DNA from: Escherichia phage ekra
Direction: 5' to 3' (one strand)
Sequence record: MN850644.1
Length of the DNA stretch: 64,000 nucleotides
Positions 56,218-56,589 of the stretch are shown in pieces; the first letter of the stretch is position 1, and each line of letters begins with the position of its first letter. Made by a program: the position numbers and the translations under genes. The notes beneath the pieces are model-generated. The model saw only the letters and a list, made by a program, of their open reading frames with translations, had not been told where the DNA came from and ran no database searches.

Positions 56218-56589
56218 TTATTTTTTGAGAGTCGCTACAGCAGAGAACGTTGGTTTGTTATCTGTCTGTTGTTGACCACCATTATCAGGAGTCTTCTTAG
56301 TGTCTGCTGCAAGTGCTTTCATCTCACCTGCTGAGTGAGTAAAGATAGTTTTACCGACCTCAATCATGCTCTTGATGGTTACGTCATCTGTGTTTAACCC
56401 GAACTCTGCAAGCTTAGCAGCGTCCCTTGTAACAATCGCCTCAAACAGCTTTGCAGCGAACTCAGCAGAATTATCAATGGTCAGTTGAGCTTTTACGAGT
56501 GAGCTTTTGTTACGAGAGCCTTTTGGTCTTCCAGATGGGTTTCCAGACTGGCCTTTTTTAAACTGGCCTTTGTTTGTTCTGTTTTTCAT
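56218..56589 (-). CDS. small basic protein with N-terminal KGQSGNPSGRPKG motif
   Basis: 123-aa ORF; Gly/Pro/Arg-rich N-terminal motif followed by helical region. Confidence 0.4.
   Translation of the reverse strand: MKNRTNKGQFKKGQSGNPSGRPKGSRNKSSLVKAQLTIDNSAEFAAKLFEAIVTRDAAKLAEFGLNTDDVTIKSMIEVGKTIFTHSAGEMKALAADTKKTPDNGGQQQTDNKPTFSAVATLKK

Follow-up and report, generated by a model that had tools for sequence, protein, structure and literature searches.

A DUF5681 gene upstream of the tRNA array as a candidate small terminase gene of Felix O1-type phages

Classical small terminase subunits (TerS), such as Sf6 gp1, P22 gp3, SF6/SPP1 G1P, 44RR gp16 and HK97 gp1, have a DNA-binding N-terminus, a helical centre for oligomerisation and a tail that binds the large subunit (TerL). 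Their DNA-binding domain is a helix-turn-helix, and their genes come first in the packaging operon. Since 2010, Felix O1, which is classically used for Salmonella typing and biocontrol, has been described as a phage with TerL and without TerS (PMC3185647, PMC7289586): it seems to lack TerS, TerL alone having been identified (PMC3185647), and the paper on phage V22 repeats the missing TerS as evidence for an alternative packaging mechanism (PMC7289586). Here we analysed a 64,000-nt stretch of the related Escherichia phage ekra (MN850644.1; the window, hereafter) and focused on one gene, 56218..56589 on the minus strand, which encodes a 123-aa protein of the DUF5681 family. We conclude, with a probability of roughly 0.6, that this protein is a TerS-type subunit of an unrecognised family that has been split from TerL by a tRNA array, a conclusion that we infer from gene position and from the absence of alternatives.

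The window is a segment of a Felixounavirus genome. Its positions 54000-58000 are 97% identical to Escherichia phage JH2 and match 260 phage records, most of them under the names Escherichia, Salmonella, Shigella or Felixounavirus phage. An initial annotation, made from the sequence of the window, had described a small protein with a Gly/Pro/Arg-rich N-terminal motif, lying upstream of a vWA gene, a tRNA array and TerL, and had suggested that it might be a small terminase. We found exactly one open reading frame (ORF) at 56218..56589, with an ATG start and a product that begins MKNRTNKGQFKKGQSGNPSGRPKGSRNK; the motif stands at residues 12-24 (KGQSGNPSGRPKG). The surroundings were also as first described, with 25 tRNA genes, a vWA-type gene and TerL all on the same strand. 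From the stop of the DUF5681 gene (56218) to the start of TerL (49206) there are 7,011 nt, and the DUF5681 gene is the upstream one of the two. The features that bear on this arrangement are:

56218..56589, minus strand: candidate TerS-type gene, by matches to Pfam PF18932 and phrog_4114 and by membership of a family found in the TerS position elsewhere
54721..56136, minus strand: Ro60/TROVE-like vWA protein (DUF2828 and DUF7788; phrog_850 'RNA-binding protein'), by Pfam and PHROGs
49636..54555, minus strand: 25 tRNA genes with embedded ORFs, by ARAGORN and Pfam
47590..49206, minus strand: TerL, by Terminase_6N and Terminase_6C (Pfam) and phrog_979, with a Mu-type portal downstream

The 123-aa protein matched Pfam DUF5681 (PF18932) with an E-value of 2.3e-14 and 54.1 bits, against a gathering cut-off of 27.5, and the match covers residues 7-78 of the protein and profile positions 2-71 of 77. 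It also matched phrog_4114 over its full length (E 2e-75). Because the protein matches both families, its N-terminal motif is not a chance feature. The ORF is conserved in 296 phage records, all of them Ounavirinae, and is always labelled either hypothetical or 'DUF5681 domain-containing'. In Felix O1 (AF320576), the ORF at 21665..22033 is 95% identical to the 123-aa protein; it is annotated there as a coding sequence (CDS) at 21665..22036, ORF85, and is gene 41 in the numbering of the genome paper. Gene 41 opens transcription unit 41-79, which carries the packaging and morphogenesis genes, and it has the same listed expression class as the TerL gene, gene 52 (PMC3185647).

At E up to 0.001, a profile search for DUF5681 recovered 12,490 clusters (50% identity), and almost every one is a single-domain protein of 105-150 aa. 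Other DUF5681 proteins (PF18932; phrog_4114, phrog_26239) have the motif, the length and the helical region in common with the window protein. Their genes mostly overlap TerL; those of the Ounavirinae branch and its relatives are parted from it by tRNA genes, to which a Ro60-like gene may be added. Neither DUF5681 nor phrog_4114 has a functional name in any database checked, and in the literature we found no functional study of DUF5681, nor of an AT-hook small terminase. Three members (P0318, P0338 and P0378; 235-282 aa) are built of two full DUF5681 units, one after the other.

The position of DUF5681 genes in other phages speaks strongly for a link to packaging. We sampled 78 diverse motif-bearing loci from IMG/VR, in 76 of which the DUF5681 ORF is complete (103-154 aa); all 77 proteins of the alignment built from these loci score as DUF5681. 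Downstream of 70 of the 76 ORFs, a long ORF on the same strand begins between -119 and +144 nt from the DUF5681 stop, typically with an overlap of 8-50 nt. Sixty of the downstream ORFs are complete and reach 300 aa or more; among these, Terminase_3 was matched by 51, the T7-type terminase RNaseH domain by 8 and Terminase_6C by 7, so that by domain content at least 51 of the 60 are TerL. Since several types of TerL are found downstream, DUF5681 pairs with several TerL lineages. The same follows from one DUF5681-adjacent locus (L087) whose TerL we had considered as close kin of the window TerL and rejected, as the two are not closely related.

The same layout was found outside this sample. It is present on a 31-kb metagenomic phage contig (L005) and in Leptospira phage LE4, in whose complete genome the DUF5681 ORF overlaps the annotated TerL. 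On a bacterial chromosome, the 470-aa protein encoded downstream of DUF5681 passes the NCBIfam model TIGR01630 'terminase large subunit'. In Pseudomonas phage phiPMW, the DUF5681 gene follows a predicted phage promoter and is itself followed by two small ORFs and then TerL. The genome of Salmonella phage STGO-35-1 has been re-oriented to begin at TerL, and its last gene is the DUF5681 gene (PMC8954984).

Upstream of DUF5681 (loci L010-L087) we found genes for ParB_N (28), N6/N4 methylases (11), TAGT (9), Tet_JBP (5) and Mom (3), together with GTP cyclohydrolase I and QueF (preQ0 genes) and radical SAM proteins. The upstream genes mark a recurrent boundary between a DNA-modification module and a packaging module. 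No known TerS family occurs among the 25 upstream families listed of the 34 matched, and DUF5681 is therefore the sole candidate in the TerS slot of those loci. On the bacterial chromosome (contig JBGGHF010000009; L002/L003 1-5940), a cassette of ParB-methylase, DUF5681 and TerL genes stands beside a Wadjet (JetABCD-like) system and also adjoins a gene for an SNF2 helicase with a PLD nuclease; it looks like a phage remnant or satellite in a defence island.

Related phages keep the gene order of the window, a comparison that the initial annotation had proposed as a check. TerL homologs 46-58% identical to the window TerL are encoded on four metagenomic contigs (L089, L090, L092 and L093), and on all four the order is a DUF5681-type gene, 8-22 tRNA genes, TerL and a Mu-type portal. 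Three of the four DUF5681-type proteins match the window protein in pairwise comparison (E 4e-15, 3e-12 and 3e-11), and the fourth, from L093, carries the motif and is placed by multiple alignment only. Those of L089 and L092 can be aligned from end to end, a C-terminal P-x-F-S-x-V included. As this order is kept in four relatives, the placing of a tRNA array between the DUF5681 gene and TerL is old and conserved. No Ro60-like gene was called in the fetched stretches of the four contigs, and by gene content Ounavirinae seem to have gained this gene later. A search (tblastn) with the L089 homolog against cultured phages gave no match. In a Brevundimonas prophage whose TerL is 43% identical to that of the window, a DUF2280 protein is encoded upstream instead, and partners in the TerS slot are evidently exchangeable. 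A small zinc-ribbon ORF (CxxC...CxxC, 66-72 aa) lies directly before the DUF5681-type gene in three of the relatives (L092 3282-3485, L089 181-399 and L093 4977-5177); it has no equivalent upstream of the DUF5681 gene in the window.

No other TerS came to light. None is annotated in the JH2 RefSeq record or in the complete, Pharokka-annotated genome of phage vB_EcoM_D4, and the ORFs near the window TerL gave no TerS match in Pfam or PHROGs. The initial annotation had named two findings that would speak against a small terminase, homology to an unrelated family and a bona fide TerS elsewhere; we found neither an unrelated characterised family nor another annotated TerS.

We next compared the protein with the TerS proteins that it most resembles, those of the P27 family (SfV orf1 and the TerS of Streptococcus phage Javan93). 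The likeness to TerS N-termini noted in the initial annotation proved real, as P27-family TerS carry a basic, Gly/Pro-rich GNPxxRP arm (GRKPKPT..GNPGKRPLN, compared with KKGQSGNPSGRPKGSRN in the window protein). In both, the arm is followed by a helical domain and then a short C-terminal tail. Both are small (DUF5681 and P27 proteins are about 110-165 aa), and P27-family TerS genes lie directly upstream of TerL; unlike these, the window gene is 7 kb away from it. Homology to P27-family TerS (Terminase_4, PF05119) was nevertheless rejected, because the arm alone aligns, and non-significantly: the alignment of the two families by hhalign is limited to 14-25 columns of the N-terminal arm, the helical domains do not align and there is no Pfam match. 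On these alignments, the likeness is one of architecture and not of membership. Classical TerS differ further, in that they use a helix-turn-helix; the window protein has an unstructured basic arm alone, and its low-confidence models gave no fold match.

The N-terminal arm itself resembles an AT-hook, a motif that binds the minor groove of AT-rich DNA. The feature is:

56506..56556, minus strand: invariant AT-hook-like motif, codons 12-28 (KGQSGNPSGRPKGSRNK), by family alignments, the HMGA match and tandem repeats

Seven residues (G13, N17, G20, R21, P22, G24 and N27) are invariant across two DUF5681 alignments. The N-terminal 33 residues have an isoelectric point (pI) of 12 and not a single acidic residue, and within this acid-free arm, which is predicted to be disordered, G20-R21-P22 is followed by K23, R26 and K28. 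The top solved-structure match of the family profile was the second AT-hook of HMGA (PRGRPKGSKNKGA), at a non-significant E of 0.18; in HMGA1 (PDB 2EZD/2EZE), this hook and the DUF5681 motif are identical at 8 of the 9 positions of GRPKGS(K/R)NK, which reads GRPKGSRNK in the window. Three long proteins (P0301, P0336 and P0340; 680-816 aa) contain 5-9 tandem repeats of RGRGRPKGSKNKxTLAxE with the canonical RGRGRPKGSKNK core. These proteins have a large N-terminal domain, and each repeat that follows it corresponds to the DUF5681 motif plus the start of the helix. Because of the HMGA match, the canonical tandem repeats, the basic arm with its pI of 12 and the predicted disorder, the DUF5681 motif reads as an AT-hook-like minor-groove arm.

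Downstream of the arm lie two further parts:

56299..56508, minus strand: predicted helical hairpin, codons 28-97, proposed as oligomerisation core; AlphaFold2, with a predicted local distance difference test (pLDDT) score of 70-80 in the helices
56236..56253, minus strand: PTFSAV, codons 113-118, past a low-complexity linker, proposed as TerL-docking peptide; noted for its conservation

AlphaFold2 was run twice, with 26 and 66 sequences, and gave models of low confidence (mean pLDDT 67 and 64). Both models leave the basic residues 1-27 and the tail unstructured and place helices at 28-54, 57-61 and 72-97, in agreement with the Gly/Pro/Arg-rich N-terminus and following helical domain that had been described at the outset. 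Fold searches with these low-confidence models (pLDDT 64-67) gave no match to solved TerS structures, and a search of BFVD gave significant E-values only for other DUF5681 proteins. Searching the sequences of solved structures with the single window protein gave no match either. The C-terminal P-x-F-x-x-V is conserved in Ounavirinae, L089 and L092, with an equivalent PLFPDV in a distant aquatic subgroup. It falls within the final 30 residues in 31 of 77 sequences, compared with 1 of 77 elsewhere in the proteins, the pattern having been chosen after the data were seen.

A sister phage offers a candidate for the DNA that such a protein might recognise. The genome of vB_EcoM_D4 (PP886228) has a 581-bp direct terminal repeat (L096 1-581 = L097 2860-3440), consistent with the published PhageTerm result (PMC11737134). 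The left end of the repeat corresponds to a point ~1 kb past window position 64000, ~8.8 kb from the DUF5681 gene. The repeat contains ~17 YTGTTAR repeats in the same orientation (e.g. CTTGTTAG and CTGTTAAGA), compared with 0.3 per 500 bp in the window, and this array is a candidate packaging recognition array, or else may be related to replication. A few more YTGTTAR repeats are present just inside the unique sequence of vB_EcoM_D4. We also considered a packaging site inside or beside the DUF5681 gene, and rejected it as the terminal repeat of the sister phage starts ~8.8 kb away.

Together, these observations suggest how the protein could act. We infer that it binds DNA, oligomerises, contacts TerL and has a role in packaging. 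The protein would be the product of the gene that opens the leftward packaging and morphogenesis unit, and its helical hairpin (residues 28-97) would assemble it into an oligomer. The basic N-terminal arms, with their GNPxGRPKGS(K/R)N, could then insert into the AT-rich minor groove at the packaging recognition site, for which the YTGTTAR repeats in the 581-bp direct terminal repeat of the sister phage are the candidate, and the C-terminal PTFSAV peptide would recruit TerL. The tRNA array, and in Ounavirinae also the Ro60-like gene, would have been inserted between the terminase genes in an ancestor of the phage group, and the DUF5681 gene would stand apart from TerL because of this insertion. 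A wider proposal is possible and is advanced here only tentatively: DUF5681 may be a very large unrecognised class of TerS that reads DNA by an AT-hook-like arm, and in Felix O1-type phages it may be the long-sought TerS, recognising the YTGTTAR array and parted from TerL by the tRNA array before Ounavirinae diverged from marine and other relatives.

Several points weigh against assigning the protein to TerS. No curated TerS family (Pfam Terminase_2, Terminase_4, Terminase_5, Nu1 and others; PHROGs; NCBIfam) was matched at E up to 1, and hhalign comparison of DUF5681 alignments with 8 verified Terminase_4 proteins gave probabilities of 1.5% and 4.1%. The family-level search for TerS homology recommended by the initial annotation thus came back empty. 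In the window, the gene is not adjacent to TerL, the two being 7.0 kb apart. The AT-hook-like reading has weaknesses of its own: the canonical AT-hook core is R-G-R-P, whereas the first Arg is Ser or Asn in the DUF5681 motif, which is present in one copy per chain; the Pfam AT_hook model had no reported match to the window protein at E up to 1; and the HMGA match of the family profile is short as well as non-significant. IMG/VR contigs are possibly enriched in terminase-bearing fragments, in which case the frequency of TerL downstream may be inflated; such a bias leaves the overlapping-gene geometry and the complete genomes unaffected. We found neither essentiality nor biochemical data on the DUF5681 gene in the literature, and the text of the Bas63 gene-essentiality preprint (10.1101/2024.10.10.617714) does not report the DUF5681 ortholog. 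TerS is also not normally a virion component. In purified virions of STGO-35-1, the DUF5681 protein was detected by mass spectrometry (2 peptides, 19% coverage; PMC8954984). Finally, by the prediction of the Felix O1 authors, gene 41 and the Ro60-like gene may together make up a short unit that a hairpin terminator closes (PMC3185647). A small terminase parted from TerL by the vWA gene and the tRNA array, as first suggested, is the best-supported reading on gene context, while the curated TerS homology that might have been expected of it was not found.

The most serious of the alternatives is that the protein is an AT-hook-type DNA-binding protein unrelated to packaging, such as one that regulates transcription in phage or host, or one that covers or rearranges AT-rich DNA, and that its proximity to terminase merely reflects first place in the late operon. 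The AT-hook-like motif, the basic pI-12 arm and the position as first gene after a divergent promoter region would all suit such a protein, as would the lack of TerS homology or a fold link. An overlap with the start of TerL in about 60 unrelated lineages and with three TerL types, where no other TerS candidate is close by, would be unexpected on this explanation, however, as would the persistence of the gene ahead of TerL in all the relatives that we examined. We therefore consider a DNA-binding role outside packaging rather unlikely.

The true TerS could instead be encoded directly before TerL, where one small ORF is found:

49213..49413, minus strand: 66-aa acidic ORF (pI 4.4), rival TerS candidate or accessory protein; ends 6 nt before TerL; phrog_4397

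Either this ORF would encode TerS or the phage would do without one, in keeping with the literature that treats Felix O1 in that way, and the DUF5681 protein would do something else. Beyond its position, the ORF has in its favour weakly similar ORFs of 60-71 aa in the same place, directly before TerL, in L089 and L092. Its product is acidic, however, with no DNA-binding motif and no Pfam or NCBIfam match, and there is no room for the ORF in L090 and L093, where the final tRNA ends 20-95 nt before TerL, whereas a DUF5681-type gene is present in all four relatives. The chance that this small ORF, or no gene at all, provides the TerS function thus seems small to us; its product is possibly a TerL accessory protein.

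The initial annotation had offered as its alternative a nucleic-acid-binding protein that functions with the vWA protein. In this form, the DUF5681 protein would bind RNA in partnership with the Ro60-like vWA protein or with the tRNA array, and would serve counter-defence or the handling of tRNAs or Y-RNA-like molecules. The gene lies directly upstream of the Ro60-like gene, co-transcription of the two is possible given the terminator-like hairpin (t42, PMC3185647), and in the group of the window phage the gene is always upstream of the tRNA array. A role in counter-defence has been described for Bas63 gp130 of a Felixounavirus, which is reported to counter the Ppl defence (bioRxiv 10.1101/2024.10.10.617714) and is the counterpart of the window Ro60-like protein, matched by description only. 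This alternative is weakened by the four relatives, which keep the DUF5681-type gene where no vWA/Ro60-like gene was called. In addition, tRNA genes were found in 0 of 7 other DUF5681 loci scanned, most DUF5681 loci have TerL directly downstream, and in phiPMW the tRNAs are upstream of the DUF5681 gene and not downstream. A partnership with the Ro60-like protein or the tRNAs is accordingly very unlikely. Least probable of all, with hardly any weight in our view, is a virion-associated DNA-binding protein that is packaged or ejected with the genome, as the two peptides from STGO-35-1 virions might suggest, since two peptides could stem from trace carry-over, the gene position is that of a packaging gene and gp41 is not among the Felix O1 virion structural proteins listed in the abstract of the Felix O1 paper (PMC3185647).

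If the TerS assignment holds, thousands of proteins in aquatic and gut viromes that now belong to a Pfam DUF would receive a function, and a TerS that reads DNA by a flexible AT-hook-like arm and not by a folded domain would be added to those known. The assignment would also improve phage annotation and help the convention of opening genome records at the small terminase gene. The missing TerS of Felix O1 has prompted suggestions of alternative packaging, and a concrete candidate gene makes the question testable. For annotators the locus is a caution that terminase genes need not adjoin, as a tRNA array and a counter-defence gene can intervene.

The remaining local features concern expression of the DUF5681 gene and the interval between it and TerL. 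Two lie upstream of the gene:

56597..56602, minus strand: Shine-Dalgarno sequence AAGAGG, 7 nt before the ATG of the 123-aa ORF, read from the sequence
56700..56745, minus strand: divergent intergenic region with two TTGACA boxes (56722-56727 and 56734-56739), corresponding to the predicted P41 of Felix O1; a weak feature

P41 was predicted in Felix O1 as TTGACA(N15)TATAGG at 21515-21541, upstream of gene 41 (PMC3185647). The P41-like site was not recovered by our consensus promoter scan, which needs a spacer of 16-18 nt, and across 49000-57300 the promoter and terminator scan returned a number of sites no higher than chance, so that its results carry little weight. Directly after the stop of the Ro60-like gene is a hairpin with a 12-bp stem (54679..54710, minus strand), which corresponds to the predicted Felix O1 terminator t42. 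It includes a TTGACA box that doubles as the -35 element of a promoter-like site directed towards the tRNA array, and the hairpin may serve as terminator and promoter in one.

Two ORFs are embedded in the tRNA array, both on the minus strand: a DUF7217 protein (49810..50607, 265 aa) with weak tape-measure and GTP-binding PHROG matches, and a DUF7338 protein (50996..51553, 185 aa) with a hydrophobic N-terminus. The first possible start of the window TerL is a TTG that gives 538 aa; the JH2 CDS of 1602 nt (533 aa) would start at about 49191. At 533-538 aa, the window TerL exceeds its 46-58% identical homologs (about 473-478 aa) by ~55-60 residues, and only ~85% of it is covered by them.

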